Positions 4,183-43,303 of a stretch of 64,000 bases of DNA are shown one piece after another (position 1 is the stretch's first letter; each line of letters starts with the position of its first letter). The DNA comes from a virus (Duplodnaviria > Caudoviricetes): the IMG/VR virus record IMGVR_UViG_3300038679_000051, positions 256,400 through 320,399 of that record, one strand, 5' to 3'. A program made the position numbers and the translations under genes. The notes beneath the pieces were generated by a model, which saw only the letters and a list, made by a program, of their open reading frames with translations, made no database searches and was not told the DNA's origin.

Positions 4183-4345
4183 GTGGGAAAGTCTAATGGA
4201 GCAGACGTTTCTGCTCATATATTATGGACATATGAATTTATCTGATATAAGGAAATTGACGGCTGAAGAACGCATATGGTATATCAAAAGAATAGACAAG
4301 GAGAAACAAGCCGAAGCTAATGCATATAAAGGAAACAAAAAATGA
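4172..4345 (+). CDS. small gp51-like baseplate hub assembly protein (57 aa; not in the ORF track)
   Basis: MEHEWESLMEQTFLLIYYGHMNLSDIRKLTAEERIWYIKRI..; typical partner downstream of gp26-like genes; ATGA overlap with the next gene. Confidence 0.7.
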   Translation: MEHEWESLMEQTFLLIYYGHMNLSDIRKLTAEERIWYIKRIDKEKQAEANAYKGNKK

Positions 4346-5445: not shown

Positions 5446-5483
5446 AATATAGCGGAGATTTTCTTTGCTAATGAGGACATGTC

Positions 5484-7814: not shown

Positions 7815-7824
7815 GGGACTATAA

Positions 7825-10422
7825 ATGGGTCGAGAAAAGGGACTTGCAAGTTTTTCTTCTAATTTCGAGGGCCAAATGGCCGCTCCGATTGATGCGCGTA
7901 TGTTAGTAGAGACTAAGGCTGATCTTATTGTGGCTGCTACTTGGCTCGCGAATGATGGTGGTACTTATGCTTATGCTGGTATGATTGTAAGTGTGCATGG
8001 CGATACAACACCCGAAAACAATGGAGTGTATAGATTAAAAGCTCTTCCAGTTACTACTGAATCTAATTGGGAACTTCTGGGTGGGGGCAGTAGCGGTCCA
8101 CAGGGTCCACAAGGCATACAGGGGCCGCAAGGCTCAGGATATGGCAGTAGCGGTCCACAGGGTCCACAAGGCATACAGGGGCCGCAAGGCTCAGGATATG
8201 GCAGTAGCGGTCCACAGGGTCCACAAGGTGCTACTGGTGACCAAGGCGTTGCTGGTAGTCAGGGTAGTGTAGGTCCACAGGGTGGTGATGGCAGTCAGGG
8301 TTCAATTGGTGATCAAGGTGTTGCTGGTGCTCAAGGTCCACAGGGCGAAATAGGTTTTGCGGTAGGGAATTTGGCTTATTTTAGATTCGACAATGAAGTT
8401 ACCGATACTGGTATGGCTAGTGAAGGTGGGGCGTTTCGTTTTAATAATGCAAACACAACCCTTGTAACCAAAATATGGATCAATAATACAGATGCCTTCA
8501 CGACTGACGTTTCTGCGTGGTTGGCAACATGGGCTGAATCCACAAGCACAATCAAAGGTTATGTGAACATTAGAGGGAGTGCTTCCAATTTCTATATTTA
8601 TTCTGTGACTGGTGTTACCACCAAGGTGGGGTATTATGAGATTGACGTAATCCATATTGCCGATCAGGGCGGTGGACCACCAGTTGATGGTGTAGAATAT
8701 CCCATATCTTTTAGCAGAACCGGGGACATAGGCATCCAAGGTGCTACTGGTCCTCAAGGTCCTGTAGGTGTTCAAGGTACTGCTGGTGCCCAAGGCGTTG
8801 TTGGTGCCCAGGGTGCTACTGGTGCACAAGGTCCTGTAGGCAGCCAAGGTGCTGCTGGTGCCCAAGGCGTTGCTGGTGCCCAGGGTGCTACTGGTGCACA
8901 AGGTAGCACTGGCATAGATGGTACTACTGGTCCCCAAGGTCCTGTAGGCAGCCAAGGTAGTACTGGTAGTCAGGGTGTTGCGGGTGCACAGGGCGTTGCT
9001 GGTGCTCAGGGCGTTGCTGGTGTTCAAGGTACTGCTGGTGCACAGGGTAGCACTGGCATAGATGGTACTACTGGTCCCCAAGGTCCTGTAGGCAGCCAAG
9101 GTGCTGCTGGTGCCCAAGGCGTTGCTGGTGCTCAAGGTTCTACTGGTGCCCAAGGTGTTTCCGGTGCTCAGGGTATAAATGGTGTCACTGGCCCACAAGG
9201 TCCACAGGGCGATCAAGGCCCGCAAAACGTTATTGGTGCTACTGGCCCACAAGGACCACAAGGCACTGGCACGCAGGGTCCACAAGGTGATGATGGTGCC
9301 CAAGGATCACAAGGCATAAATGGTGTTACTGGTCCACAAGGTCCACAAGGTGAGAAGGGTGATCCCGCTGGAACACCTGATTCATGTAAAACAATATTAG
9401 AATCCGATTATCCATTAGCGAATGATGATGCAATTGCAATACCGTTTACTGACGAGGATCATGATACCGATTCGATGCATAGCAATATTGTCAATCCAAG
9501 TAGGATTACCATCAAAACGTCTGGTTATTACCATGTTCGTGGTGTACTTAAATTTGCGACGAATGCAATTGGCATACGATATGCTTATATCAGTAAAGAT
9601 GGAATTAAATTGGCAGATGAAGTCAGAGATCTGAGTCCGTCTGGTTCTTATGTTTCTTATGTAGAGGTCGACCTAGGCGTAATTTCTCTTTCGACCAATG
9701 AATATATCCAGATACATGGTTATCAAAACAGTGGCGATCCCTTAGGTGTTTTGATGGATGGTAGTTTTCTGTCTGTAACGAGTGCATCTGGTGCTAATGG
9801 TGATCAGGGACCAACTGGTCCGATAGGACCACAAGGTGTCATTGGTAGTCAAGGCGATGATGGTACACAGGGACCACAAGGCACTGGTACGCAGGGTCCA
9901 CAGGGCGATCAAGGCCCGCAAAACGTTATTGGTGCTACTGGCCCACAAGGACCACAAGGCACTGGTACGCAGGGTCCACAGGGTGATCAAGGCCCACAAA
10001 ATGTTATCGGTCCGCAAGGTTCACAGGGTCCACAGGGTGATCAGGGCATTGGTGCTACTGGCCCACAGGGACCGCAGGGTCCGATTTGTGCATCAGTACA
10101 AGCACAATCGACCACACCATTAAATCTTACGGCCGCCGATAGTGGCAAAATAATTACAAATGAAGGCATGACTGAATTATTAGTAGTAAATCTACCTACA
10201 GCGGAGGCAGATTTAATGTTCACATTCATAGTACAAGATTCAGACGGAATAAAGATAGTGGCCGGCGTAGACGATAGTACAAGGCTTGGTACAACCGTCA
10301 GTAAATTAGCCGGATATATTCAGAACGCTGTGATTGGATCAATAGTCCGATTGGTGTGTATAAATAATACTGAATGGTTCGCCGAGTATTGGGTAGGTAC
10401 TTGGATAGTGGAGATTTCATAA
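7825..10422 (+). CDS. collagen-like tail fibre protein
   Basis: Long GAQ/GAT/GPQ runs; one C1q-like domain (about 9379-9800). Confidence 0.8.
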
Positions 10423-11159
10423 TGGCTACAGTTGGCTCTCCCGGCATCGGTGTAATTCTTCCGGGGATGGTTATATCATTCGCTGGTGCATCTGTACCAG
10501 AGGGGTGGTTGGATTGTGATGCTACCGCCGTCAGTCGAACCACATATGGTAATCTATTCGCAGCCGTTGGTACTGCTTATGGTGGCGGTGACGGTGGCAC
10601 AACTTTTAATCTTCCTGATTTTCGTGGTCGTTCTATTTTAGGCGAGGGTACTGGTTCCGGTCTCACTGCGAGGGCAAGGGGCGATAAGGCTGGCGTCCAA
10701 TCAGTTTCCATAAGCGCAAATAATTTGCCGCAGCATACGCACGCGGGTGGCGGAAATGTGGGAGCCGAATCCAGCCATGCGCATGGGGCCGGAACCTATG
10801 CAATATCAACGAACAGCAATGCGCACACCCATTCGGGATCGACTGACTGGCAATCTCACGACCACACCCATTACTACTATAATCAATGGTCTGGAAGTGG
10901 TGCGAGTGGTAATAGTTGGGGTGGCTCTTATATAGGCCAAACGAACACGACATCCGGCGTGACGTCAAATCATTATCATCCATTCACAACGGGCAACAAC
11001 TCTTCTGGTGCGAACCACGATCACACGCTGAGCGGTTCGACTGCTGCTGGATCATCTCATGCGCATTCAGACCCGACAACGGGCAACAATACCACCACGG
11101 CCTCGAATGTGGATACGATAAGTCCGTTTGGCGTAGCCAAATACATCATCAAAACGTAA
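10422..11159 (+). CDS. tail collar domain fibre with His-x-His repeats
   Basis: Start at 10422 (TAATG coupling). PGMVISFAG..P.GWL.CD..VSRTTY.NLFAA.GT.YG.GDG.TTFNLPDFRGR collar motif. Confidence 0.85.
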   Translation: MATVGSPGIGVILPGMVISFAGASVPEGWLDCDATAVSRTTYGNLFAAVGTAYGGGDGGTTFNLPDFRGRSILGEGTGSGLTARARGDKAGVQSVSISANNLPQHTHAGGGNVGAESSHAHGAGTYAISTNSNAHTHSGSTDWQSHDHTHYYYNQWSGSGASGNSWGGSYIGQTNTTSGVTSNHYHPFTTGNNSSGANHDHTLSGSTAAGSSHAHSDPTTGNNTTTASNVDTISPFGVAKYIIKT

Positions 11160-11175
11160 TGATCAGGAGCATGAA

Positions 11176-12093
11176 ATGGCTCACGTAATTGATATTTTCG
11201 GTACAGGCGCACCAGATGCGGCGTCAGCGGCTGGTAAGAACATGCTTAAAGCCGCTGACGTAGCAGCACAACAATCAATTATTATTCCTTCTGGTATTGT
11301 GTTACCATTTGCGGGAGCAAGCGTACCAGAAGGGTTTTTAGATTGTAATGCCGCCGCCGTCAGTCGGACTACCTATGCAAATCTATTTACGGCGGTAGGC
11401 ACTGCCTATGGTGGTGGTGACGGTGGCACAACTTTTAATCTTCCTGATTTTCGTGGTCGCTCTATTTTAGGCGAGGGTACTGGTTCCGGGCTAGCTGCGA
11501 GAGCAAGGGGCGATAAGAGTGGCGCAGAGGCGATCACTTTAGCTGCAACTGCATTACCACAACACACACATGCGGGTGGTGGTAACGTTGGTGCTGAGGC
11601 TTCCCATAGTCATGCCGTTGGATCGTACGCTAATGGCGCTGAGGCGAGTCATACTCATGCCACCGGATCATACGCTGCTGCGACTAATAGTAACACTCAC
11701 ACTCACACTATGAGTTTTAATTCAGGTGATATTGCCGGTTCTAATCATAGACACAACATCAAGCTTGAAATGATAGGAGGAAGCGGATCGACTAGGAATG
11801 TTGTTAGTACAGGCGGCACTGAAACTGGTGATGTGACCTCAGTCGAGAATGCCAATCATTATCATGCTGTCAGTGGTACTTCGGCGAACAACTCTGCTGG
11901 TGCAAATCATGATCATTCTATGAGCGGTTCGTCCGCTGCTGGTTCCAGTCACAATCACACTATAAGCGGTTCGTCCGCTGCCGGGTCATCACACACACAT
12001 TCAGACCCGACAACGGGCAATAATGCAGCCCCATCAACAACCGTACCGACCTTGAGTCCGTTTGGCGTAGCCAAATACATCATTAAAACATAG
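11176..12093 (+). CDS. second tail collar domain fibre with His-x-His repeats
   Basis: Same collar motif; close paralog of the preceding gene. Confidence 0.85.
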   Translation: MAHVIDIFGTGAPDAASAAGKNMLKAADVAAQQSIIIPSGIVLPFAGASVPEGFLDCNAAAVSRTTYANLFTAVGTAYGGGDGGTTFNLPDFRGRSILGEGTGSGLAARARGDKSGAEAITLAATALPQHTHAGGGNVGAEASHSHAVGSYANGAEASHTHATGSYAAATNSNTHTHTMSFNSGDIAGSNHRHNIKLEMIGGSGSTRNVVSTGGTETGDVTSVENANHYHAVSGTSANNSAGANHDHSMSGSSAAGSSHNHTISGSSAAGSSHTHSDPTTGNNAAPSTTVPTLSPFGVAKYIIKT

Positions 12094-12122
12094 GGTTCAG
12101 CGAACCATAAGGAGAAACAAAG

Positions 12123-12650
12123 ATGAGCTTTCCGGATGCATTAGACTTAGCTACAGCCTTAGAGTCTGGCAAAGCAACCAAGGAACAAGTTAATCTTGCG
12201 GCTGAACGGTTGCGGCAATTTTTTCAGCTAGCGAAAACGCAGGAAGCAAACGTGGAATCATTTAGAACGGCACGTGATACTGCCGTCTCAAATCTTGCTG
12301 AGCGTGAGGTGGTACTTGGTGAGATGATCCATACGGCTGCGAATACAATCAACCAAAAAGAACAAGAATTAATTGAAAAGACAAATCGATTATCCAACAA
12401 AGATGTTGAAATTCAGACCTTAACGCAATTGATGGCGGATAAGACGGCTGAATTATCCACGAAAGAATCTATGATAATCGTTAAGGAATCAGAATTAACC
12501 GTCGTTTCGCAAGAACTGACAGCGCTTAAAGCCAAGCCAGAAGTGATAAAAGTTTTAGATGAAGAAAAGGCGAAGCGAATAATAATGTTGAAAGCAGAAT
12601 TGGCAGAATTAGAACCAAAAGAAGAACCAATTGGAGAAATAGAGAAATAA
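12123..12650 (+). CDS. coiled-coil hypothetical protein
   Basis: GGAGA RBS; E/K/L-rich heptads. Confidence 0.65.
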   Translation: MSFPDALDLATALESGKATKEQVNLAAERLRQFFQLAKTQEANVESFRTARDTAVSNLAEREVVLGEMIHTAANTINQKEQELIEKTNRLSNKDVEIQTLTQLMADKTAELSTKESMIIVKESELTVVSQELTALKAKPEVIKVLDEEKAKRIIMLKAELAELEPKEEPIGEIEK

Positions 12651-12655
12651 AAATT

Positions 12656-12841
12656 CTAGAAATCTTTGGTCTTTTCTTTTGCTTTTTTGGCGCTTGTTTT
12701 TACCGTTTTACATATTGGGCATGTCCATTCATCATAATCGTTTGGGTTGCGGGCATGTGTTGTCGTTTTCATGCATTTAGAACAATAATGATTCATTTTG
12801 GTCAACATCGGCAATGCCTCATATAACATTTGCAGTTTCAT
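12656..12841 (-). CDS. small zinc-ribbon protein
   Basis: CSKC..WTCPIC. Confidence 0.55.
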   Translation of the reverse strand: MKLQMLYEALPMLTKMNHYCSKCMKTTTHARNPNDYDEWTCPICKTVKTSAKKAKEKTKDF

Positions 12842-12903
12842 GTATGGTTTCTCCTTGAAGACATTTTGGCTTTACCGTTGTGCATCCAGTAATATTTTTG
12901 TCG

Positions 12904-12910
12904 TAAATAT
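12904..12910 (+). promoter_or_regulatory. putative late promoter (TAAATAT) directly before an RBS-less ATG
   Basis: Motif ends 4 nt upstream of ATG 12915. Confidence 0.45.
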
Positions 12911-12914
12911 TAAT

Positions 12915-13889
12915 ATGGAGAGAGAAACGTTACAACCGATTGATAAGTTTAACCATTGTGCGTCAATTATTGAATTCTATGACGGCGTATTGATTGCTTA
13001 TTATGCCGGTTCGAGGGAATGTAATGACGACCAACGAATAATCCTGACGTACAAGAACGTACATCAACCAAAAAAGAGATGGAAATGGTCTGATGCAATC
13101 AGTTTTGAAATTGGGACAGGGAATCCCATTTTGTTTAAACATGATAATGCAATCTACGTTGCTTATGCCAAATTTGAACGAGACTTTCCACAACGCGTGA
13201 AAAAATGGGCTTATTGTTCATTGTGGTGTCGTAAAATATCATTGAGCACGCAATTGGTCGTGGGTGATCCAATGCCCATGTTCAAACACCCGCAGATTGG
13301 TTTTCTGTTTAGGATTGCGCCGTTCTACCACGATGGTAGAACGTTTTTACCGATATATAGGGAAGAGAATTGTTATAGTGCCGTATATGAATGGTTAGGA
13401 GACAAATTAAAGCTAATCGGGCGGATTGGTTATGGTTGTAATTCGACCATGCAACCGTCATTATGGTATGATGGCACGGCATTTCACGCATTGTGCAGGA
13501 ATTATCGTCCCAGCGTATATGGACCATACGCATGGCATTCAACGTCACCAAATCTGATAGATTGGTCACATCCTGAATTGGAAAAGACGTTAGACAACAA
13601 TAACAATTCAATCGCCGTCATAAATGATGATAAGAAGGATCCATTGGTCATTTGGAACGTAGGGATGGATAGACGAGATCTCCGTTTAGGTAGGCTCAAT
13701 GGGCACATGCGTGGCATAAGTTATGTGACGCTCAATTCTGACGATGGGTTGAGATATGGGTCTTATCCAAATTATTGCTTTGATAAATTCAATGGTCTTC
13801 ATATGGTATGGACCGATATGATTGACGACAATTTATCGATCAGTTATATGTCATTGAATGAAAAGGAATATCGGCAATTAAGAAAATGA
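12915..13889 (+). CDS. BNR-repeat / exo-alpha-sialidase-like beta-propeller
   Basis: HCASIIEF..L.AYYAGSRE..GNPILF..MQPSL..RN..S.NL..WS.P..NNNS pattern; likely start 12915. Confidence 0.65.
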   Translation: MERETLQPIDKFNHCASIIEFYDGVLIAYYAGSRECNDDQRIILTYKNVHQPKKRWKWSDAISFEIGTGNPILFKHDNAIYVAYAKFERDFPQRVKKWAYCSLWCRKISLSTQLVVGDPMPMFKHPQIGFLFRIAPFYHDGRTFLPIYREENCYSAVYEWLGDKLKLIGRIGYGCNSTMQPSLWYDGTAFHALCRNYRPSVYGPYAWHSTSPNLIDWSHPELEKTLDNNNNSIAVINDDKKDPLVIWNVGMDRRDLRLGRLNGHMRGISYVTLNSDDGLRYGSYPNYCFDKFNGLHMVWTDMIDDNLSISYMSLNEKEYRQLRK

Positions 13890-14143
13890 GGAGGGGGAAA
13901 ATGCGCTTTAAACTTAAGGGCGTTGATAAGGTCTTTATTTCATGGACGACAACCACTTGGAATGGGGTCCAATATTACGAAGGTGTTGTAACTTGGCATA
14001 AGAAAATGCCTAAATCAGGCAAGAAAGAAGCGTTTGCTCTTTGTATGGGCAAACAAGTAATTACCGAAAAAGAACATTACATTGTTGAAAAGGACATAAC
14101 GACACTTGCTTCTAAACCCTACTGGGAAAACCAAGGTAATTAG
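13886..14143 (+). CDS. hypothetical protein
   Basis: Coupled to the upstream stop; plausible RBS. Confidence 0.5.
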   Translation: MRRGKMRFKLKGVDKVFISWTTTTWNGVQYYEGVVTWHKKMPKSGKKEAFALCMGKQVITEKEHYIVEKDITTLASKPYWENQGN

Positions 14144-14145
14144 TT

Positions 14146-15291
14146 TTATTTTTCCGGTTCGATATCTGCCAATCTTGCATATTCTGCATCGTCATATTTC
14201 TCGCCTCTTGACATTAGATTATGTTTCAATTGTTCTGGCGTCCTAGATAACCACTCAAATTCAAATGAGGTATATCCAAATGGTCTTAACGTGCTTTCCA
14301 ATAATTCGCGCCATCGTTTGTATCTAAAATGATATCCTTCCACTATTATGTCCTTTGATAGATTTAACGATAGGCAAGCATTTTGTAATATGAAACGCTC
14401 CAATGATTGCGTCAACAAATCATTGATTCTAGTTTGTTCATAATCTTTCAAACATTGATCGTCTTGGTTCAACGTACGCATCGTTTCACGTAATACGCCA
14501 TCTAAAGACAAGGCATTGGTCGATCTAGTATGGGTCGTATAGGTTTTGCCAGATCCAGGGGGGCCTGAAATTATGGTTACTTGTTTCTCACTATCGCGGC
14601 GTTTTTTGCATACGAATAAATATCGTACGCCGTTCTTACCACCTTCATGTAATCCTTTGGGCAGTTGTGGTGGCGGCATGCGACAATGGATCATGGCATG
14701 GTCGAAATGTCGTCGTAACGTTTGTAAGCAGTAAGCCAGTGACGGTATGTTATTGTTGAATCCTTCTCTATAAGTCATCAATTCGGCGGTCAATGGGTTG
14801 CAAATTATTTCGAGATAATAATTTGCACTATCAATTTTGGCTAGGCGTTCAATGGCTTTATCAAATTTAACGTCTGCATCATTCACGCGACCTTGTATTA
14901 AATGATGTAATACTGCCAAACAAAACGTGATGTCGAATGCGTCCTTCTCATAGGGCTGTGTCGTCCAGAAATCAGATTGCATTATTAAGTGGTTTCTATG
15001 TTTCACATAATTTTGTAGTAAAAATCTGGTGGCCAATACTGCATTGATGTCACGGTCTATGCCGACAATCGAACTTGCCCCAAGCTGGGCGGCTCTACAG
15101 AGAAAATATCCGCTCGAACAACCAATATCTAGAACCCTCTTATTTCTGACGGACAATTCCGACCACGGCAATTCACGGTCGCGCAAAAGCGTGTCGGAAT
15201 GACCCCTAATGATTGTTGAACCTATTTTGAACGTATGGTAATGGAACCCCGGCGTTTTCTTAATGTGTTCAATGATTTGTTGTTCGTCCAT
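14146..15291 (-). CDS. class I SAM methyltransferase (CmoB/DUF1698-like) fused to P-loop kinase domain
   Basis: VLDIGCSSGYF..GID..FDITFCLAVLHH, then IISGPPGSGKT Walker A. Confidence 0.75.
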   Translation of the reverse strand: MDEQQIIEHIKKTPGFHYHTFKIGSTIIRGHSDTLLRDRELPWSELSVRNKRVLDIGCSSGYFLCRAAQLGASSIVGIDRDINAVLATRFLLQNYVKHRNHLIMQSDFWTTQPYEKDAFDITFCLAVLHHLIQGRVNDADVKFDKAIERLAKIDSANYYLEIICNPLTAELMTYREGFNNNIPSLAYCLQTLRRHFDHAMIHCRMPPPQLPKGLHEGGKNGVRYLFVCKKRRDSEKQVTIISGPPGSGKTYTTHTRSTNALSLDGVLRETMRTLNQDDQCLKDYEQTRINDLLTQSLERFILQNACLSLNLSKDIIVEGYHFRYKRWRELLESTLRPFGYTSFEFEWLSRTPEQLKHNLMSRGEKYDDAEYARLADIEPEK

Positions 15292-15313
15292 TTTCTATCT
15301 CCTTTTCATTATA

Positions 15314-15321
15314 TATTTATA
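15314..15321 (-). promoter_or_regulatory. T4-type late promoter consensus TATAAATA
   Basis: Exact TATAAATA on the minus strand, upstream of the AAGGAG RBS of 15291. Confidence 0.6.
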
Positions 15322-16756
15322 GAGCATTTTTCACCTTGGCTATTTCACTTCCAAATTTCCAATCATGTCTAATGACGTTTTCTTTTGTTCGGATTATTTT
15401 TAATGATTCAGTTTCGTTCATCAACACTCTATCAATCGTTCCACCATAACTTTCGTTTTTTCTTGTACGTTTAATTCTTGGATCGCAATTTCGTATCAAC
15501 CAGTCTATTGATCGACAATTTATTATATAAGCATAAGTTCCCGCCTGTCCATTGATTTTCTGCCAATAATCACTCACATTACATTTAACGATAGTTGGTA
15601 ATTTCGGATGATGATATAAGTATGCTATGTCGAAATCATCGGGTAGATTTTTAACATATTTATAAAAGATGTCGATGGAGTCACAACTGACATCATCTTC
15701 CAAGATCAAAACGTTTCCACCGTATCTTTTTGCTCGTTTAAAACATTCCAATTGTGCTAGTGCACAAGCAAAACTGTTGCGTTTTATGCCATCAGAGGCG
15801 TTTACGTTATGTGATTCGCCGCCAGATCCTTTATAAAACCATGACGGTACTTCGTCATTCCATATGATACCGGGCACTCTCTCAGATATAGAATTAAGCC
15901 CTAATTGTAGGAGTAGACGTTCGACGTTTAATTTCCTGTCGTGAGAACCATCTATATTTATATAAAAGACACGATTAATTTTGTATGGATAGATTTCAAT
16001 CAATGAATGTGTCTGACTATAAAAATCAGACAGAGAATGTATTGGCTGAGTAATGACGACTTTATGTTCTACTTGACGACGACTTAGACTTGCATAATGT
16101 TTGTGTGGCAATTGTCTACTCAATGCGAGTTTATAACCAGATCCAATCAATTGTTTGCTCATATCGATATCGCAATGCAAATGTTTCCTACATTTTGTCC
16201 AATTGATTGATTTTAATGCGGCAGTTCGAAATAATGTTGCCGAATATGTTGCCCAATATACTAACCAAACAATCTTATCATTAATCACTAGTTTTCTTTC
16301 TGATTCTACGTTTTTGATCGTCGGTGACGTCGCCTTTCCGTATTCGTCGACGGCAAACAATTCGAGACTTGCAACGTTATTTGGCAATAATTTCATCAAT
16401 TTTTCGGCTTCCAGCCTATTGAATAATACAGTGTCTTGCTCACATATCCAAACGAATTCGTCGTTGATCACATTAATCGTTTTTTCCAACAATAAATTCA
16501 TTCTCGGTGGTTTACCCTCCGATAATTCGACAATTTCACCCATTGTCCTTAGCCATTCCTTATCTTCTATTGGTGCTGCATCTACAGCATATATGAAGTT
16601 TATGTCTCTATTACAATCATATGTCTCTTTGATGCATTTCTTAATCAATCGCCTATTTTCTGGCCAATCTTTCCTAATATAAATCGTCTTGATCATTGTA
16701 ATGGTTCTTCGTTTTGGTCTAAACCCGCTCAAGATTGGCGCAAATTTATGCATCAT
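15317..16756 (-). CDS. two-domain glycosyltransferase: N-terminal GT-A-like domain plus C-terminal GT25-like domain
   Basis: C-terminal VFYINID..DR..ERVPG..CALAQ..VLILEDD..AGTYAYII is GT25-like; N-terminal domain has WICEQD. Confidence 0.7.
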   Translation of the reverse strand: MMHKFAPILSGFRPKRRTITMIKTIYIRKDWPENRRLIKKCIKETYDCNRDINFIYAVDAAPIEDKEWLRTMGEIVELSEGKPPRMNLLLEKTINVINDEFVWICEQDTVLFNRLEAEKLMKLLPNNVASLELFAVDEYGKATSPTIKNVESERKLVINDKIVWLVYWATYSATLFRTAALKSINWTKCRKHLHCDIDMSKQLIGSGYKLALSRQLPHKHYASLSRRQVEHKVVITQPIHSLSDFYSQTHSLIEIYPYKINRVFYINIDGSHDRKLNVERLLLQLGLNSISERVPGIIWNDEVPSWFYKGSGGESHNVNASDGIKRNSFACALAQLECFKRAKRYGGNVLILEDDVSCDSIDIFYKYVKNLPDDFDIAYLYHHPKLPTIVKCNVSDYWQKINGQAGTYAYIINCRSIDWLIRNCDPRIKRTRKNESYGGTIDRVLMNETESLKIIRTKENVIRHDWKFGSEIAKVKNAL

Positions 16757-17580
16757 TTACCTTTCGTGAAGGGAATGATTTGTGGGCCGATTTTATAAAA
16801 AATATCTTCTATGCCGAATCTGCCTTTTAATATATCATAATATTTATATATGTCGCGCCTATATTTAGAATAATCATTTTCAGTCTCATGTTTGTGGTCG
16901 ATGATTACGTTATTCGTAAATGCAACTTTAACGTTTCCTCTTTCTTTTAAATTTAGAAATATATCAATATGCGATACGGTTTTCAGTTCTGGCATCCAAC
17001 CTACATTGCGCATTAATTGCGTTTTAGCTATGAAAAAATTCATAATTATGTCATAATATTTAATACCGTTTATTTCAGCCACAGGGACATCTTTGTTGAG
17101 GATCAACATACCATTGTCGTATTCTGCCTGTATGTTATAGGAATGACCTATGACGAAACCACCTACTACATCCATCTTTTCGGTCGTAATTAACTTATAG
17201 AAATTTTCCAATACGGTTTCATCTATAAATATGAAATCATCATCACATAATATGAAATATGGTGTCTCTACTTTGCTCAATAAGAAATTTCTACCCGCAC
17301 CCGCACCGACATAAAATGGGAGTTTCCAATATTTGATCGCATGACCAAAACCGTGATCATTGAATTCTTCGACTGTCATTCGATGTAATTCAGAATCATC
17401 TGCTATGAGTATGTGCATGTCCAAATAACGTTTTCTGACGGATTTTATAAGTCGTGCCAAACAAGTTGGTCGTTTGAATGTTTTGATTATTAGCGTTACT
17501 TCTTCGTTGAATTTAGTCATGCATTCAAGTTTCGGCATGATCAATTTATCAACTTCCCTTTTAGGGAATTTATGAGCCAT
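16753..17580 (-). CDS. glycosyltransferase family 2
   Basis: VTLIIKTFKRP..ILIADDS..GAGRN..TPYFILCDDDF; RBS spacing favours ATG 17580. Confidence 0.85.
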   Translation of the reverse strand: MAHKFPKREVDKLIMPKLECMTKFNEEVTLIIKTFKRPTCLARLIKSVRKRYLDMHILIADDSELHRMTVEEFNDHGFGHAIKYWKLPFYVGAGAGRNFLLSKVETPYFILCDDDFIFIDETVLENFYKLITTEKMDVVGGFVIGHSYNIQAEYDNGMLILNKDVPVAEINGIKYYDIIMNFFIAKTQLMRNVGWMPELKTVSHIDIFLNLKERGNVKVAFTNNVIIDHKHETENDYSKYRRDIYKYYDILKGRFGIEDIFYKIGPQIIPFTKGK

Positions 17581-17633
17581 TTTCATTCTCCTAATTATCT
17601 ACATTTGATTCTAATAAGCGGGCGTGGCGTTGA

Positions 17634-18023
17634 TTAATGAGGTAAAGAAGTGGTTGTGATGTCTTTAGGCAACAAGACGGAACGCACGGTTTCCCAATTT
17701 ATTAAAGGACGTTTGTGCATTGCGTATTGAATCAATGGGGCACCAAAAGCAGCGTCATCGATATACAGATGTGCATAGGCTTTTGGGCTGGTGGTCCAAT
17801 TTTGTTCTGGATTGCGTTGGATTCCAAACAATGGGATGTTCCGTTGTCGATACCATTTTATGGCATCTTGGAGTTGTTCACCATCCCGCATGGTCCAGAG
17901 GATTATTTTGTGTCCTTGTGCGACTAAATCACGCAACGTGTCAACCGCACCAGGCGCATCTGAACCGACATCTGGGAAACGGTGATCTACGACGGTCCCA
18001 TCGAAATCGACCGCGATGATCAT
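17634..18023 (-). CDS. HAD-superfamily phosphatase (BT0820-like)
   Basis: IIAVDFDGTVV..LWTMR..K.YAHLYIDD. Confidence 0.85.
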   Translation of the reverse strand: MIIAVDFDGTVVDHRFPDVGSDAPGAVDTLRDLVAQGHKIILWTMRDGEQLQDAIKWYRQRNIPLFGIQRNPEQNWTTSPKAYAHLYIDDAAFGAPLIQYAMHKRPLINWETVRSVLLPKDITTTSLPH

Positions 18024-18232
18024 GATCTAGTCCATCTTTCGAACTTTGGGCATGAATGGTTGTAGTGGACGTTATGGTTATAATTGTTTCCAGATGCATC
18101 CTTGTTTGAACAACGACCTTGACTGCTTTCTGCGATCACCTCACCTGAACACATGTGTGATCGATCTTCTCGTTTGCCGCTCCAGTAAATGCAACACGCA
18201 CAATGCTTGCCTGTAACGCTGCTGACGCTCAT
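18020..18232 (-). CDS. small Cys-rich hypothetical protein
   Basis: GGGAGG RBS; CACC, C..C and CP motifs. Confidence 0.55.
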   Translation of the reverse strand: MSVSSVTGKHCACCIYWSGKREDRSHMCSGEVIAESSQGRCSNKDASGNNYNHNVHYNHSCPKFERWTRS

Positions 18233-18442
18233 GTTCTTTCCCTCCCTTTTTATCGTTTCATGAGACGATGATTGCGATTCACCTTAAATGCTACCTATCC
18301 ACCAGCATTGATGCCCATCTTATGCAAAAAATCTGTGTCAGATTGCTTAAACATGCGTTCCTCCCAACGTTCATTAACGTTATGAGGGCAATCCGTCAAT
18401 TCTTTTTTTGAATCTTCATATGTTTGTCCTGATAAATAATTA

Positions 18443-18640
18443 AGAGGGGATTAAGAATGAAATCAGATACGTGGAATTAATCAAACGCAATAACCTTGAT
18501 CTAAAATAGATTGAAGACAACGTATTGCCGTTGTTGGCTGACAACATGAGTAAAAGATGGGCGGTAGAGTTCCGTAAGATGGCACTTAAAGACGAAATCA
18601 ATGAGGACGACGAAAACATGATCCTGAGGAGCATGACGTA
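18443..18640 (+). pseudogene. possible gene remnant with internal TAG
   Basis: Frame reads EGIKNEIRYVELIKRNNLDLK*IEDNVLPLLADNMSKRWAVEFRKMALKDE..; protein-like, but no start codon and one stop. Confidence 0.25.
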
Positions 18641-18642
18641 AC

Positions 18643-19356
18643 ATGCTTTACGCCGCCGGTCGGAAAATACCTAAACGGTTGTTGGAACGACCGGAAACGA
18701 AGTCACTCATATTGTCCAACAGTATGATACCGAGATTTAAAAAATCAACACGAATGCGGGATGCAATATTTGTATGGATACCAAAGTGTGCTGGGACTAG
18801 CATTTATAGGTCATTAGGATTCACTAAACTTAAGCGACATAGACAATTCACCAAATTCAATAATTCAGGTCGCGTTACATTTGATCATGTCTCATTGTTG
18901 ACATTACTCGAAAACAATTATGTGTCGAGACAATATTATAATAGGGCATTTAAATTTTGTTTTGTCAGGAATCCATGGGATAGAATAATTTCATTGTACC
19001 ATTATCTGTGGCGTTACCACAAAACTGATTTTAAAAATTTTTGCTATCTCATAGATAAAGGCATAGATGACATTGGATTATATAATTCTAAAGGTTTTAG
19101 CCAGGCTAATCCGCAATACAAATGGATTTATGATGAAAACATGAAGTGTATAGTTGATTTTATTGGTCGTCATGAGATGTTGCAACACGATTTCGACACC
19201 ATATGCAATAAGTTGAACATGCCATCTATTGAGTTATTAAGAGCAAATAGATCAAGACATAGGAAACCTTACCCAGATTATTATGACGATGAGACGAAAG
19301 AGATTGTGCGTAAGATCTATAAAAAGGACATTGAATTATTTGGATACGAATTCTAA
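18643..19356 (+). CDS. sulfotransferase (Sulfotransfer_2 family)
   Basis: FVWIPKCAGTSI (5'-PAPS loop), FVRNPWDRIISLY (3'-PAPS motif), DFIGRHE.L..DF. Confidence 0.85.
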   Translation: MLYAAGRKIPKRLLERPETKSLILSNSMIPRFKKSTRMRDAIFVWIPKCAGTSIYRSLGFTKLKRHRQFTKFNNSGRVTFDHVSLLTLLENNYVSRQYYNRAFKFCFVRNPWDRIISLYHYLWRYHKTDFKNFCYLIDKGIDDIGLYNSKGFSQANPQYKWIYDENMKCIVDFIGRHEMLQHDFDTICNKLNMPSIELLRANRSRHRKPYPDYYDDETKEIVRKIYKKDIELFGYEF

Positions 19357-19442
19357 TGAACAATAAGATACCTAAACGATTGTTGGAACGACCGGAAACG
19401 AAGTCACTCATATTATCCAACAGTATGATACCGAGATTCAAA
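18664..19442 (+). repeat. 78-bp direct repeat encoding an identical 26-aa N-terminal leader (18664-18741 and 19365-19442)
   Basis: Both copies translate to KIPKRLLERPETKSLILSNSMIPRFK; four nucleotide differences, all synonymous. Confidence 0.95.
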
Positions 19443-20015
19443 ATCAAGATCAAAGAACCAAAACGTTCTAGGAGCGTTCGCGATCGTCATGTTGGTGGTT
19501 TTCATACGCACGGTGATCCGTCAACGTGGTATCCGGACATGTGGCAATGGTTTGTAAAGACACACAACATCAAAAACGTATTGGACGTTGGTTGTGGTGC
19601 CGGTTATGCGGCTGGATATTTTGCACATCTTGGTTGTAATGTAACGGCAATTGACGGTTCGAAAAAAGCGTTGAATTATAAAGTGTTCAACATTAAGATA
19701 CACGATCTGGTTTATGGTCCATTCTTACAGAAAGACGTTGATTTAGTTTGGTGTTGTGAAGTGGTAGAACACATTAGAGAAGAGTATCTTGGGCATTTAT
19801 TGGATACGATTTGTCAGGGCAAATGGTTGTTGATGACGCATGCCAGACCAGGCCAACCAGGGACGCATCACGTCAATTGTCAGCACGATGGTTACTGGAT
19901 TGGAAAAATAGAAGAGAGGGGATGCAAATACGACGACGCCATTACGTCGTCGTGTAGAGACATGGCTGGTGGTTTCTTCAAAGAAAGCGGATTGGTGTTT
20001 AAATGCTTACAATAG
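19356..20015 (+). CDS. class I SAM-dependent methyltransferase
   Basis: VLDVGCGAGY..AIDGS..DLVWCCEVVEHI..PGQPG.HHVN. Confidence 0.85.
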   Translation: MNNKIPKRLLERPETKSLILSNSMIPRFKIKIKEPKRSRSVRDRHVGGFHTHGDPSTWYPDMWQWFVKTHNIKNVLDVGCGAGYAAGYFAHLGCNVTAIDGSKKALNYKVFNIKIHDLVYGPFLQKDVDLVWCCEVVEHIREEYLGHLLDTICQGKWLLMTHARPGQPGTHHVNCQHDGYWIGKIEERGCKYDDAITSSCRDMAGGFFKESGLVFKCLQ

Positions 20016-21367
20016 CTGGTAGGAATCCACACAAGAAACTGATAATCCCTAAAAGAGAGATCAAACCGATCATCAAACAAGCATCGCAAGAAATCGAATT
20101 AAAACAAATACCAAGCGTGGTTGAGAAAAAGACAATTGCGATGATTAAATGTGTCTTTATTAGAGAAGATTGGCCGGAAAATAGGCGATTGATTAAGAAA
20201 TGTATCAAGGAGACATATGAACAGAATAGAGACGTTAGAATAATATTTGCCGTAGATGCAGCACCAGTAGAGGACAAAGAATGGTTGAAAACGATGGGTG
20301 AGGTAATAGAATTATCAGAGGGTAAACCACCGAGGATGAATTTATTGTTGGAAAAAGCAATCAATATGGTTGATGATGAATATGTCTGGACATGTGAGCA
20401 AGATGTTATTATTAGTAAAAGCGAGAGATTGAAAGCAGAAGAATTAGTCAGAAAATTACGTGATGATGTTTATGCATTAGAGATAAGATCTGTTGATGAG
20501 AATGGGTGGCCGACTTATCCATTTAAAAGAAGAAGAACCATTGAGAATGAAAAAATTGGTGGTTATGTTGTATGGTTAGATAGCAAGCATACTACGTTTT
20601 CTAGTGTGATATGGAAGACTAAATTTATGAAATTGATCGACTGGAAAGGATGTAGAACGCATTTATATTGTGATGTTGATGTAAGTTTGCAATTGCGACA
20701 AAGAGAATATAAGAATGCATTATGTGGCGACATCAAGTATGTTCATTATCCAAGTTTAAGTCGTAGACGATTTGATCACAATGAATTGATGCAAATCGGC
20801 ATAAAATATGGAACTGATAAGGCAATTGGTCATAATTATATAAAATATTATTATGAACTGTTTAAACATAAACGAAATGACGTCAAAAGGGTGGTTGAAA
20901 TTGGTGTTCATAAAGGTGCGTCATTGAGAATGTGGCAAGAATATTTTCCAAATGCACAAATTTATGGCTTTGATATCAAAGATTATGGTGATTATTTTAA
21001 TAAAACCGAAAAGAGAATCAAGACATATGTCGTTGATCAAACTGATTCAAAACGACTAAATGAGATTATGACAGAGATAGGAGAAGTTGATATAATTATA
21101 GATGATGGTTCGCATATTGACACTCACCAATTGATCAGTCTTAATGCATTATATAAATGGGTTAAACCTTTTGGATGTTATATAATCGAAGATATCAATC
21201 CAAAAGGTTATAATTATGGTGATAGATCAGAAAAGTTTATTGCATCATTTAATGATGATTTGATAGATAAAGATGTTGTATTAACGTTAAAACATAATAA
21301 AATTGAAGTTCATAATAATGAACCTGGTACATGCATGATAGCAATTTTCCATGTGCTCGTGAGGTGA
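20003..21367 (+). CDS. GT-A-like domain fused to sugar O-methyltransferase-like domain
   Basis: N-terminal domain is a close paralog of the 16756 N-terminus; C-terminal KYGTDK..HNY..VVEIGV..GASLRMWQEYFPNA.IYGFDI..DIIIDDGSH. Confidence 0.75.
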   Translation: MLTIAGRNPHKKLIIPKREIKPIIKQASQEIELKQIPSVVEKKTIAMIKCVFIREDWPENRRLIKKCIKETYEQNRDVRIIFAVDAAPVEDKEWLKTMGEVIELSEGKPPRMNLLLEKAINMVDDEYVWTCEQDVIISKSERLKAEELVRKLRDDVYALEIRSVDENGWPTYPFKRRRTIENEKIGGYVVWLDSKHTTFSSVIWKTKFMKLIDWKGCRTHLYCDVDVSLQLRQREYKNALCGDIKYVHYPSLSRRRFDHNELMQIGIKYGTDKAIGHNYIKYYYELFKHKRNDVKRVVEIGVHKGASLRMWQEYFPNAQIYGFDIKDYGDYFNKTEKRIKTYVVDQTDSKRLNEIMTEIGEVDIIIDDGSHIDTHQLISLNALYKWVKPFGCYIIEDINPKGYNYGDRSEKFIASFNDDLIDKDVVLTLKHNKIEVHNNEPGTCMIAIFHVLVR

Positions 21368-21369
21368 AA

Positions 21370-21891
21370 ATGGACACGAATGTTTTGAACTTTGTAAAAA
21401 AGTTGAATCTAAACGAAAACGAAAAGGTACTAGAAGTGGGGAGTTTAAACATCAATGGTACAGTACGTTCTGTCATTAAAAATAAAAACTATATTGGCAT
21501 AGATGCCGTTGCTGGAAATGGCGTTGATGTCGTCATGGATTTATTTGATATTGATATAAAGTTTGAAGTTGGTAGTTTCGACATTGTTGTTTCTTGCGAA
21601 TTACTAGAACATGTTGAGGATTGGTTTGGTGCCATACAAAAAATGTGGAAAATGTTAAGACCACAAGGACAGTTGGTTTTAACTACCCGTCGCCCTGGTT
21701 TTGGTTATCATGCTTATCCGAATGACTTTTGGCGGTTTACTACCTCTGATTTAAAAAAAGCATTTAAAAAGCAATATTGTCTAATTGAGGATCTTGATAA
21801 TTTTGGGATTGGTTGTTTGGTAATCAAGACAACAGAATCAATTGATAATAATAAATTTTCAATTGATTCTTTCATAAAACCATATCCCTAA
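21370..21891 (+). CDS. class I SAM-dependent methyltransferase (type 11-like)
   Basis: VLEVGSLNING..GID..GVDVV..FDIVVSCELLEHV..LRP.G..YH.YP.DFWRF; start 21370 after GAGG. Confidence 0.85.
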   Translation: MDTNVLNFVKKLNLNENEKVLEVGSLNINGTVRSVIKNKNYIGIDAVAGNGVDVVMDLFDIDIKFEVGSFDIVVSCELLEHVEDWFGAIQKMWKMLRPQGQLVLTTRRPGFGYHAYPNDFWRFTTSDLKKAFKKQYCLIEDLDNFGIGCLVIKTTESIDNNKFSIDSFIKPYP

Positions 21892-22662
21892 TTCAACATT
21901 GTCCGATGTGATGGCTTTACCGATAAATTTGTTCGTTGTCTGATCTAATTGCATATTTCCATGCTTATAACCATTTTTCCAAGTGACTGTAAAAGATGTT
22001 TTGTCTATGCTAAGTATTCCGACATACCCATTTGAGTGTGAGACATTCATCGATTTGTTGATTGTGACTATTCCATCATTGCATTTCCACTTACCAATTA
22101 TTTTAGTTATATCAATTTCATTTTTCTTAACATTTTCCACTTTTTTAGTGGTGGTTTCTTTCCCCGGATTGATTACGATCCTGCTTTCCAGTTCCAATAA
22201 TTTCTTATAACCGTCTTGATCTTTGTGTCTGATTTCTTCTGCCACTCGTTTCAGTTCTTTCTTTGCTTCTTCTACCGTCTCGATTGCTCGCTTCATTGTG
22301 CCGTCCACTTTGTCGGCTTTGGCGATGATGTTTGCACATTTCTCCAGCATTATGACCTCTTCGCGGGTCGTGGATAGGCGTCGGTTTTTGTGGAGGGATT
22401 CTTGTGCCGCTTTTGCGTCGTCTAGGGCACCCACGTAATCTTGTTCATCCAGTCTGATTTGGGCACGGATTGTCAATGCTTCGGGGTCGTCCCCCTTCAC
22501 TTTGATGGCGGCTTCGAGTAGTGCTTTAGCCGGTTCGAGTTGTTTCAGTTCGATCATCCTCTTGGCGGCGTCAACGGACGTCCGACAGATTTGCTCCGGC
22601 GTCTCACCAGCAAAACAACCAAAACAAGCAATTACCAATAGCATTGCAACCATTTTCATCAT
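21859..22662 (-). CDS. secreted/periplasmic TPR-containing protein
   Basis: Signal-peptide-like MMKMVAMLLVIACFGCFA; TPR-like EALTIRAQIRL..DY.GAL.DAK.A. Confidence 0.65.
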   Translation of the reverse strand: MMKMVAMLLVIACFGCFAGETPEQICRTSVDAAKRMIELKQLEPAKALLEAAIKVKGDDPEALTIRAQIRLDEQDYVGALDDAKAAQESLHKNRRLSTTREEVIMLEKCANIIAKADKVDGTMKRAIETVEEAKKELKRVAEEIRHKDQDGYKKLLELESRIVINPGKETTTKKVENVKKNEIDITKIIGKWKCNDGIVTINKSMNVSHSNGYVGILSIDKTSFTVTWKNGYKHGNMQLDQTTNKFIGKAITSDNVELGIWFYERIN

Positions 22663-23365: not shown

Positions 23366-23974
23366 TTAATGTCGAATATTTAGAAAGGCGTCTGCTTCAA
23401 TCCGTTGGTTTTTATCCGACAACCAATGATTTTTGGCTCTAACGTCATCGGTCACTACGTTTAATTGTGATGCCAATTTTTCTTTGGTCCATCCTGACGG
23501 TAGATCACCGCCAAAACCTATTGCCCATTTTTGTGGGCCGACGTTCAACACTCTACCACGTGGATAAGCCATCCATAATTTCTTAAAATCGTCAGTTGCC
23601 GTCTTTTTAAATGAGTTGGCGACGATGTCGGCAGCAGCGTTGCGCCATAACGTTGCATGTGAGTTACATTTGAAATATTCTTCTTCAAAGAATATCACCC
23701 GCCAGTCATGTTTATCCGGCACAATCCAGAACAATGCTTCTACTGCTCTAGCTTCCATGATCGTCGCCAAATACGTCATCCTTATGCCGCGTCTGGCGCG
23801 TTCATTCGACGTCGGTATGTCGTCATATAATTCTTTCAATTCAGTTGGAAGTAATTTTGGGTCAATGTCGTCATATAACGTGTCGATTTTGGTCGTTTCA
23901 GTGATTTTTACCTTATTTGGATCAATGCTGCCATTCTCATTTAAGACGTCATCATATAATGATTCCAATTTCAT
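23366..23974 (-). CDS. hypothetical protein, H-x-x-L/PRGR paralog family
   Basis: Start MKLESLYDDVLNE after a GAGG RBS; clear paralog of 26224. Confidence 0.7.
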   Translation of the reverse strand: MKLESLYDDVLNENGSIDPNKVKITETTKIDTLYDDIDPKLLPTELKELYDDIPTSNERARRGIRMTYLATIMEARAVEALFWIVPDKHDWRVIFFEEEYFKCNSHATLWRNAAADIVANSFKKTATDDFKKLWMAYPRGRVLNVGPQKWAIGFGGDLPSGWTKEKLASQLNVVTDDVRAKNHWLSDKNQRIEADAFLNIRH

Positions 23975-23989
23975 GTTTCCTCTGTTCAC

Positions 23990-24571
23990 CTAATCAGTTA
24001 GGTCTTTGGATGGGCTTGATATAATCTCGTCATATAATTGTAATTGTTTTGGCGCAAGACGATATTTTGATAAATCTAATGCACCAACGCTTTTAAAGAT
24101 ACGTTCAATACCGGCTAGGTCACTCCTCCTAGCTGAAATCAACTTCATTGCCGTTAATCCTGCCGCTGATGCTACGGGAATGCCGTTTTCTGTTGTTGCC
24201 TCGGCAAAAACTTGTGTGACGACATGCTCAGGGATTTTAATGAATGCGGCAGTCAACACTTCGACTTCGACGTTTGTAATGCGATGCTCAAATGAATGTC
24301 TTCGGTGATGTTTAAACGTCTTTAATGTGTCGTGCATCAGATCTATCGCCGATTCATTCATAACTAGAACGTCTATGTCTTGGGTTCCGGTCGGTATGGC
24401 TCGATGTCCGACTGCTAGCCCACCGACGAGGACCCATGGCGTTGACGTGCCTATTTCATTGGCGAAATCTTGCAATGTTCGTTTGAGAACGTTGGCACCA
24501 TCTTCGGTGAGCGATCTTACCGTATCGGCAATTCCAAGTGATTCATATAATGTGCGCATTCTCATGGTCAT
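23990..24571 (-). CDS. nucleotidyltransferase (Pol-beta superfamily, DUF6036/AbiEii-like)
   Basis: WVLVGGLAVGHRAIPTGTQDIDVLV..VEVL..L.AMKL..R.SD. Confidence 0.75.
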   Translation of the reverse strand: MTMRMRTLYESLGIADTVRSLTEDGANVLKRTLQDFANEIGTSTPWVLVGGLAVGHRAIPTGTQDIDVLVMNESAIDLMHDTLKTFKHHRRHSFEHRITNVEVEVLTAAFIKIPEHVVTQVFAEATTENGIPVASAAGLTAMKLISARRSDLAGIERIFKSVGALDLSKYRLAPKQLQLYDEIISSPSKDLTD

Positions 24572-41520: not shown

Positions 41521-42153
41521 ATGCAATTAATGGATTACATAAAATTTGATGGTCCAGCTTCCTATAAGTTGGAAGACATCAAAGTGTGGCTTGAACAACA
41601 TCAAGACAAAACCATTTATGAATTGTCGGAAGCGGCTAAACGTTCACCACAACGGGTTCGTTCCTGGCGAAATGTGTTCGGTTTAAATAAACCAAATCCA
41701 TTTCATGATCCTAAAAAACAAGAGACGATGCGTAGAAAGAAATTACAGAAAGGAATCATACCAAACTCCGTGGATAAGAGCAAAATCGAGGATCATGAAT
41801 GGATGCATGAGAAATTCATTAATCAGAAATGGACTAAATTAGACATCGCGTCGGTCTGTGGCGTGCGGAACATAGACGTCCATAATAAATTGGTTGAGCA
41901 TGGATTGTTTGTACCAAATGCGTGCAAGAACAAAGAATGGCTCTATGAATACTATATAAGGAGGAAGCTGTCGACCGTTGATTGTGCCAAAATAGCTGGG
42001 GTATACCCATACACCATTCAGCTTTGGCTCTATCGATTTGGTCTCGAAACGAGGATGGACGGAGAGGCTACGGGGGCACGCGGTGCCATTCCTATTACAA
42101 TCACAGATCAAGTTAAAGAAATCAACGTATCTGGAGCGGTTGCTCCGGAATAA
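41521..42153 (+). CDS. HTH-repeat DNA-binding protein
   Basis: Three HTH-like units (e.g. KEWLYEYYIRRKLSTVDCAKIAGVYPYTIQLWLYRFGL). Confidence 0.65.
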   Translation: MQLMDYIKFDGPASYKLEDIKVWLEQHQDKTIYELSEAAKRSPQRVRSWRNVFGLNKPNPFHDPKKQETMRRKKLQKGIIPNSVDKSKIEDHEWMHEKFINQKWTKLDIASVCGVRNIDVHNKLVEHGLFVPNACKNKEWLYEYYIRRKLSTVDCAKIAGVYPYTIQLWLYRFGLETRMDGEATGARGAIPITITDQVKEINVSGAVAPE

Positions 42154-43264: not shown

Positions 43265-43277
43265 TGACGCGTCTTTT

Positions 43278-43284: not shown

Positions 43285-43303
43285 ATTTAAAAGGAGGATG
43301 ACC

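Follow-up and report, generated by a model that had tools for sequence, protein, structure and literature searches.

The locus and the question

Why should two unrelated enzymes, encoded side by side in one viral genome, begin with the same peptide? The question is raised by two adjacent genes, one for a sulfotransferase and one for a class I S-adenosylmethionine (SAM) methyltransferase, in the IMG/VR record IMGVR_UViG_3300038679_000051. The stretch analysed here is the last 64 kb of this 320,399-bp record, is referred to as the window, and supplies the positions given below unless the genome is named. Near their N-termini both enzymes carry an identical leader of 26 residues, and the explanation that fits best, to which a probability of about one half might be given, is that this leader is translated, is under selection and serves as an address or docking peptide through which tailoring enzymes come together at one place.

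The record has direct terminal repeats, and the phage genome encodes proteins that match the Gp23 profile at 264 bits and Peptidase_S77, the gp21-type prohead protease, at 99 bits. In the window there are also genes for a T4 baseplate protein and for a tail tube protein resembling gp19. With a gp23-type capsid protein, a gp21-type protease and baseplate and tail tube genes the phage is therefore a T4-like jumbo myovirus, and Shine-Dalgarno sites are in use across its genome.

A repeat conserved as a peptide

The leader is encoded by a single repeat family with two direct copies (18664-18742 and 19365-19443), which are 79 nt long, 95% identical and 701 nt apart, with sharp edges of homology in that nothing is similar just outside the 79 nt. 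By self-BLAST and an all-against-all comparison of N-termini it is the sole dispersed high-identity repeat of its kind in the genome, and the peptide that both copies encode, KIPKRLLERPETKSLILSNSMIPRFK, is found just twice in the 320,399 bp. A first-pass annotation of the window had described an identical 26-residue leader on two unrelated enzymes, and the repeat search, our own comparison and Pfam all agree with this. The four synonymous differences that it listed between the copies are exactly those found (AAA/AAG, CGG/CGA, TTG/TTA and TTT/TTC), all of them transitions and all at codon position 3.

Four random substitutions would all be synonymous with a probability of 0.002 if uniform, or of 0.009 if restricted to transitions. 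By Nei-Gojobori counting (S = 17.3, N = 60.7) all 4 changes are synonymous and 0 are non-synonymous (Fisher p = 0.0017), with a dS of about 0.28 and a dN of 0, whereas about 14 non-synonymous changes would be expected were both copies drifting. The predicted RNA fold of copy 1 is somewhat better than that of shuffled sequences (z -2.0), that of copy 2 is not (z -0.15), and copy 2 lacks the structure of copy 1, whose stems are disrupted by two of the silent changes. Within the repeat the plus strand gave no promoter match. The earlier proposal that selection acts on the peptide, and that this is not a neutral duplication, gains support from differences that fall on wobble positions only and break the RNA hairpins of copy 1, and the pattern of substitution supports selection on a peptide rather than on an RNA or DNA element. 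The synonymous pattern alone picks no strand, because one antisense frame has the same wobble positions, is equally silent and also yields identical peptides in both copies; the sense strand is chosen from its continuity with the two enzyme ORFs (open reading frames).

Probable translation of the leader

A start-site matrix was trained iteratively on 352 long ORFs of the phage genome, and with it the mean score is 4.8 for chosen starts and -4.4 for the remaining in-frame ATGs. The ATGs upstream of the leader score -0.10 for the sulfotransferase and -0.77 for the methyltransferase, against -6.87 and -8.05 for the ATGs internal to the leader (the Met of MIPRFK), a difference of about 7 bits. The sulfotransferase ATG has GAGGAG 11 nt upstream and lies 1 nt past the stop of a 31-codon ORF, and at the other gene, in the usual arrangement of coupled genes, the methyltransferase start codon shares bases with the stop of the sulfotransferase (TAATG). 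From these starts the leader would be preceded by 7 other residues in the sulfotransferase and by 3 in the methyltransferase. The evidence on translation is mixed but leans towards yes, and on the start signals and the substitution pattern together it is very probable that the leader is translated; true starts at the internal Met, which the first-pass annotation had named as fatal to its own proposal, are not favoured by the start model.

A programmed frameshift that would fuse the two genes was also considered, and was rejected as no slippery site could be seen by eye in the 18 nt where the frames could join.

The 31-codon ORF upstream is itself only putative (18546-18641, plus strand, MSKRWAVEFRK...DEINEDDEN...). 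It ends 1 nt upstream of the sulfotransferase start and has no Pfam match, and its C-terminal half, next to the basic leaders, is acidic.

The two enzymes and the character of the peptide

Behind the leader the two proteins belong to different families. Residues 42-236 of the sulfotransferase ORF match Sulfotransfer_2 (PF03567) at 53 bits against a cut-off of 22, and the IPKxAGTS motif that binds 3'-phosphoadenosine 5'-phosphosulfate (PAPS) is present, with P47, G51 and S53 invariant and K48 nearly invariant in the alignment of homologues. The methyltransferase body, at about residues 73-162, matches Methyltransf_11 at 40 bits (cut-off 21), with Methyltransf_25, _23 and _12 also above their cut-offs, and in its glycine-rich SAM motif DVGCG the alignment has D77, V78, C80 and G83 invariant and G79 and G81 nearly invariant. 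AlphaFold2 predicts the cores with high confidence (pLDDT, its per-residue confidence score, above 90 in both enzymes and above 92 in the sulfotransferase); the leader has a pLDDT of 44-68 and two short, uncertain helices in the sulfotransferase, and a pLDDT below 40 and no secondary structure in the methyltransferase.

The peptide has a net charge of about +5 over its 26 residues and contains three prolines, and the first 35 residues of the two enzymes carry +7 and +6, the 97th and 95th percentiles of the ORFs of the genome. A reading of the leader as a signal peptide or transmembrane segment was rejected by eye, its only hydrophobic run, SLILSNSMI, being too short. A single run of complex prediction for the sulfotransferase with the methyltransferase gave a score of 0.00, which speaks neither for nor against binding.

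Homologues of the sulfotransferase mostly start 5-16 residues ahead of the PAPS loop, and those of the methyltransferase start 10-20 residues ahead of the HLGG motif and align from about residue 45. In IMG/VR no close relatives of the sulfotransferase were found, and relatives of the methyltransferase are only 35-44% identical and align from residue 42-57 on. N-terminal extensions of at least 30 residues, mostly basic, are present in 36 of 120 sulfotransferase homologues and are unrelated to the leader. That the leader might be native to the Sulfotransfer_2 family, as one of these RHPFRFRR-type extensions, was considered and rejected, a profile of the extensions giving the leader no score. A run-on of BLAST alignment through the leader into another protein, P0054, was weak.

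A parallel in a related phage

Relatives with a capsid protein 70-77% identical to that of this phage are plentiful, and most are without these two enzymes. One of them, IMGVR_UViG_3300028883_000037 (capsid protein 75% identical), has a sugar island with a collagen-like gene, gmd, glycosyltransferases of the GT1, GT2 and GT9 families and a pyruvyl transferase. There a leader that begins MDKFR opens a GT2 and Sulfotransfer_3 fusion, a DUF5672 protein and an adjacent methyltransferase with an extra C-terminal domain, and the methyltransferase is read from a TTG start behind GGAGA. Two of these leaders, on adjacent genes, have 14 of 19 residues in common at a nucleotide identity of only 70%, with six silent codon differences, CGG/AGA and TTA/CTT among them, and five conservative replacements. 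Judged from this pattern of codon change, the MDKFR leaders are under long-standing purifying selection as a basic N-terminal peptide.

The MDKFR set is like the leader studied here in being basic, in being adjacent and kept as protein, and in its place on a sulfotransferase-bearing enzyme, a methyltransferase-bearing enzyme and a third enzyme of the sugar island. It differs in that its sequence is another, it begins directly at the Met, it has three bearers and it is older. A back-translated MDKFR pattern matched only IMGVR_UViG_3300028883_000037 in IMG/VR, and a profile of six leaders, run on 33 related records, found only the phage used for training and one spurious match in a protein unlinked to the sugar island.

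The surrounding island

The two genes lie within an island of fibre and sugar genes at 4342-21891 (Table 1), several of which share a feature of the leader. In all ORFs of at least 90 residues, 133,579 residues in total, there are 17 PKR tripeptides, and 7 of these are in the first 30 residues of a protein where 2.5 would be expected. Six of the seven N-terminal cases fall in 16 kb of this island, on fibre 1, the GT-A-like two-domain enzyme, the GT2 enzyme next to it, the sulfotransferase, the methyltransferase and the enzyme that fuses GT-A-like and methyltransferase parts. The seventh lies outside the island, on a protein grouped with phage GT-A-like glycosyltransferases in the ESM Atlas, for which no homologues were found in IMG/VR. 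The arginine codons of the motif differ (CGN as against AGR), which places the motif at the level of protein. There is no doubt that the motif-bearing N-terminus of GT2 is translated, as AGGAGA lies upstream and the start scores 9.1; the starts of the two GT-A paralogues are ambiguous, with public callers taking the upstream ones, and for the fusion enzyme an internal MIK start is about 4 bits better. It is suggestive that PKR N-termini would form a wider pattern of the island, and only suggestive because the motif was defined after the sequences had been seen.

Table 1. Genes and sequence elements of the fibre and sugar island, by position in the window
Feature	Position	Strand	Remarks
GT2 enzyme of the island	4342		
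Collagen-like fibre protein (fibre 1)	5484-7814	+	LPKR at residues 12-15; weak member of the PKR set
Second collagen-like fibre gene	7825		
Two tail-collar fibre proteins and a BNR-repeat protein			Island members
Methyltransferase-kinase	14146-15291	-	
Two-domain enzyme, GT-A-like N-terminal domain	15317-16756	-	N-terminal RPKRR; start overlaps GT2 stop (ATGA); C-terminal half without Pfam match, GT25-like label not confirmed
GT2 glycosyltransferase	16753-17580 (16753-17586 as an island gene)	-	N-terminus MAHKFPKRE...; hydrophobic-PKR motif as in leader
Small protein	17634-18023	-	Sub-threshold Pfam hits only; HAD-like label not confirmed
Sulfotransferase gene, 237 aa	18643-19356	+	Sulfotransfer_2
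Leader copy 1, 78 nt	18664-18741	+	KIPKR...MIPRFK; sulfotransferase residues 8-33
Internal ATG (MIPRFK), sulfotransferase	18724-18726	+	No Shine-Dalgarno; alternative start, with most of the leader then untranslated
Class I SAM methyltransferase gene, 219 aa	19356-20015	+	Methyltransf profiles
Leader copy 2	19365-19442	+	Same 26 aa; methyltransferase residues 4-29; four synonymous third-position differences from copy 1
Internal ATG, methyltransferase	19425-19427	+	No Shine-Dalgarno; start in public gene call
GT-A-like and methyltransferase fusion enzyme	20003-21367	+	N-terminus MLTIAGRN...IIPKRE, resembling the sulfotransferase's MLYAAGRKIPKR
One further methyltransferase			Island member

The two GT-A paralogues are linked by an inverted repeat of 272 nt, 79% identical (16434-16705 on the minus strand and 20132-20403 on the plus strand). 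This repeat is the GT-A-like N-terminal domain common to two enzymes with unlike C-terminal halves, one with no Pfam match and one a methyltransferase, and for the fusion enzyme the relatives found in IMG/VR were of the C-terminal domain only.

Directly past the island a 267-residue protein (21859-22662, minus strand) begins with what looks like a lipoprotein signal (MMKMVAMLLVIACFGC), matches TPR weakly and may be an exported factor. At the start of the window a protein with a Mom-family/GNAT domain (23-1036, plus strand; Pfam Mom, 71 bits) adjoins the tail genes and may be a DNA-modification enzyme.

A proposed role for the leader

It is proposed that a 79-bp segment was duplicated, which would have placed the same flexible, basic N-terminal peptide on a PAPS-dependent sulfotransferase and a SAM-dependent methyltransferase, and that the tag has since been kept unchanged in its amino acids whilst the DNA drifted. 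The tag would hold both enzymes at one site, so that sulfation and methylation would take place on the same substrate on which the glycosyltransferases of the island act. This site may be an anionic surface, such as the membrane's inner face, on which lipid-linked sugars are assembled, with the contact being electrostatic and hydrophobic, or it may be a putative phage-specific scaffold or substrate protein. The strict identity over 26 residues, and the fact that each phage has a leader of its own, would favour a sequence-specific partner, whereas the unrelated and mostly basic extensions on about a third of bacterial sulfotransferase homologues would favour a generic effect of charge. Of the first-pass proposal, the docking or targeting tag seems reasonable and is strengthened by the three MDKFR enzymes of the relative; its virion and protease part is not supported, as discussed below.

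If true, a portable tag that suffices to gather unrelated enzymes in one place would explain how new tailoring activities could be plugged into a pathway by one short recombination, and the peptide would be a handle for finding the substrate or scaffold. T4-like phages would then also have a second class of N-terminal address peptide, of a different chemistry from the capsid-targeting sequence.

A number of points weigh against an address peptide. There are only two copies with four substitutions between them, and were one copy alone constrained, the absence of non-synonymous changes would still have a p of about 0.07. The nearest homologues of both enzymes are without this leader. No match to its sequence was found in any collection searched: phage GenBank records by blastn, IMG/VR with a back-translated pattern, JGI metagenomes (two patterns) and GTDB genomes, 5.8 billion proteins with residues 1-40, and 1.84 billion cluster representatives by phmmer, in which there was no true match to the leader. 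The public gene call begins the methyltransferase at the internal Met (P0121, 196 aa), and with internal starts both enzymes would have the lengths typical of their homologues. Although tblastn carries the methyltransferase alignment through the leader into IMGVR_UViG_3300028883_000037, the similarity of the leader to the MDKFR set (for example DKFRKRLINRIKPK against NKIPKRLLERPETK) is not significant in composition-preserving shuffles (p 0.04-0.12), and a parallel is therefore claimed and not homology. No such leader was found on the sugar enzymes of four other relatives (the partial G010, one that is 89% complete and two that are complete). To these is added the caution already given on the PKR pattern.

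The single phmmer match, to a 1850-residue repeat protein (P0249), was rejected as spurious, with many weak PKR..PET repeats adding up.

Alternative explanations

The alternative that survives best, although it is rather unlikely, is that the repeat is a scar of duplication or recombination, 79 bp having been copied as the catalytic part of one gene came to stand behind the other gene's start. The leader would then be translated but do nothing specific on at least one of the enzymes, and the identity would be due to youth, to gene conversion or to constraint on one copy. The sharp edges with nothing similar outside are as a scar would have them, as is a peptide with two copies in one genome and orphan in all databases searched; the nearest homologues work without it, constraint on one copy leaves the p of about 0.07 given above, and exchange of fragments is known among phage proteins (PMC10684548). 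However, a dS of about 0.28 with a dN of 0 rejects drift of both copies, and further enzymes of the island show the extreme charge and the PKR pattern again. The relative moreover keeps an analogous common leader on three enzymes at a DNA identity of only 70%, and conversion or youth does not fit those leaders because their DNA is too diverged. If a scar is all that it is, then the locus would be a tidy example of phage gene assembly from fragments and nothing more.

It is improbable that the repeat is an untranslated common 5' region, with both genes starting at the internal Met and the repeat acting as a leader RNA or translation-initiation region, such as the operator of a translational repressor. 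Such a repeat would cover about -60 to +18 of both genes, and the public methyltransferase call, the homologue-typical lengths and the fold of copy 1 are all in keeping with it. Yet each of the three differences found upstream of the internal ATG is a synonymous third-position change (p = 0.014), the internal ATGs are without Shine-Dalgarno sites and have scores (-6.9 and -8.0) typical of non-starts, copy 2 does not keep the fold and no promoter was matched on the plus strand. The relative's leader, for its part, begins at a start codon behind a good ribosome-binding site.

More doubtful still is a capsid-targeting sequence of the T4 type, by which the leader would load both enzymes into the prohead core and the gp21-type protease would cut after L-L-E. 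This phage has such a protease and a gp23-type capsid protein, and the peptide does contain LLE at leader residues 6-8. An L/I-x-E site is, however, cheap by chance, the estimate from residue frequencies being about 0.2 in a 26-mer, and the identity of the copies runs 15 residues past LLE (RPETK...MIPRFK). The T4 capsid-targeting leader, MKTYQEFIAE, is acidic and ends at an L-x-E site. Known capsid-targeting sequences have about 10 residues, are amphipathic or acidic and come directly after the Met, whereas the leader studied here is strongly basic, has 26 residues and does not directly follow the Met. In relatives the tag-like leaders are acidic, with L-x-E at their end, and the candidate capsid-targeting-like tags in the same window (ORFs at 23366-24571) are acidic also. 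The other PKR N-termini and the MDKFR leaders are without L-x-E, and the two enzymes need the cytoplasmic cofactors PAPS and SAM and are encoded in a fibre and sugar island, not in a head module. The virion flavour of the first-pass annotation, which had likened the L-L-E to T4 prohead-protease sites, is for these reasons not supported: the site is easily had by chance, conservation continues beyond it, the charge is basic and the cofactors are cytoplasmic.

A role at the level of DNA is likewise very unlikely. Recombination between the direct repeats would delete the sulfotransferase body and give sulfation-plus and sulfation-minus phage in one population, with an in-frame leader-methyltransferase gene left behind. 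T4-like recombination works on homologies of about the size of this repeat, and copies that are direct, 79 bp long, 95% identical and 701 bp apart would suit it; a 100% identical Logan contig that ends inside the repeat can be counted on the same side. Wobble-only divergence would be left unexplained, and the relative's leaders are kept as protein at 70% DNA identity. Look-ups of the exact proteins, made for population variants, gave only contigs 100% identical to the window and no variation.

The Logan contig (L017) is from SRR13051709 and equals positions 11430-18708 of the window, ending in leader copy 1 within a 35-nt stretch that is identical between the copies, as assemblers do at repeats; it also places the same phage in another data set, and IMG 3300039302 is a further sample that contains the phage.

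That the antisense frame is what is conserved, with small minus-strand ORFs at 18648-18803 and 19226-19453 encoding a selected peptide, is scarcely credible: both ORFs are open and the peptides are identical in both copies, but this identity is automatic because the wobble positions are those of the sense frame, the common peptide would lie at the C-terminus of one ORF but at the N-terminus of the second, and both ORFs lie wholly inside well-supported enzyme genes.

Other shared peptides in this phage and its relatives

Elsewhere in this genome, outside the window, the peptide TDPLVDAAVK is encoded twice, by the copies of a 31-nt repeat that differ at one silent site, in ORFs at genome positions 236641-237123 and 237763-238962 (L016:1142-1624 and L016:2264-3463). 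One copy is in an N-terminal extension of GDP-mannose 4,6-dehydratase (gmd), just past a possible start, MHA; the other is near the C-terminus of an unrelated 160-residue ORF, just past an internal Met (MAR). It is a second short peptide common to unrelated ORFs of this genome.

Also outside the window, several minus-strand genes at genome positions 44558-115037 share an N-terminal module of about 45 residues, MHW..KEQLNDVI.AVRKI...MKD.TIVKKL, which heads a family with PEICMAAV..DG.AL repeats and at least three proteins with other C-terminal parts. In these genes conservation at the level of DNA extends to the ribosome-binding site with the start codon (AGGAGATAAAACGTG or ...CATG).

In the relative G002 (IMGVR_UViG_3300032132_000001) an acidic leader that resembles a capsid-targeting tag, M.PDEIA.LITDDPDVLNE, is found on more than 10 unrelated proteins (for example at 91673, 97792, 108402, 121535 and 290059), and at 41890-43440 four adjacent genes open with a serine-rich tag, MKTRNGFVSNSSSSSF. 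A further relative, G001, has the leader MKNIDL.DP..DPKKLW on three proteins.

Comparison with known systems

Shared N-terminal address peptides are already known in phages, and the basic leaders described here, on sugar-tailoring enzymes, are seen in two phages only. Phage proteins are known to exchange domains and fragments, giving mosaicism (Smug et al. 2023, PMC10684548). In such fragment mosaicism, as in the present case, a short stretch becomes common to otherwise unrelated proteins through recombination, but no 26-residue N-terminal tag that purifying selection maintains on two enzymes is described there (PMC10684548). In the T4 internal proteins IPI, IPII and IPIII the capsid-targeting sequence is likewise a short N-terminal peptide on otherwise unrelated proteins of a T4-type phage, and is the only conserved part of them (PMC3012670). 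The leader described here differs from that sequence in being basic, in having two bearers only and in being on cofactor-dependent enzymes that tailor sugars.

Further afield, BclA and other spore proteins of Bacillus have a common N-terminal exosporium-targeting motif that leads them to a collagen-like, glycosylated surface layer. The likeness is in a short N-terminal motif carried by several proteins, and the island of this phage also codes for collagen-like fibres. The sequence and the organism are different, however, and the tagged Bacillus proteins are structural, whereas here they are enzymes, with a weak PKR match on one fibre.

A match in logic is with the Golgi, where short basic N-terminal tails sort glycosyltransferases and sulfotransferases through recognition of the GOLPH3/Vps74 type. 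In both cases unrelated glycan enzymes have a short, basic and unstructured N-terminal motif, which there brings them, and here would bring them, to one working site, and the analogy is one of logic only, as the Golgi system is eukaryotic with membrane-spanning enzymes and a known adaptor, whereas here the host is bacterial and the enzymes are soluble with no transmembrane segment. It may tentatively be suggested that T4-like jumbo phages that build their own glycans give their tailoring enzymes (sulfotransferase, methyltransferase and some glycosyltransferases) short, basic, disordered address tags by which these enzymes are gathered at one site. Each lineage would have tags of its own, since the tag would co-evolve with its receptor so fast that it could no longer be recognised between relatives; such tags would be the phage counterpart of the Golgi tail motifs.

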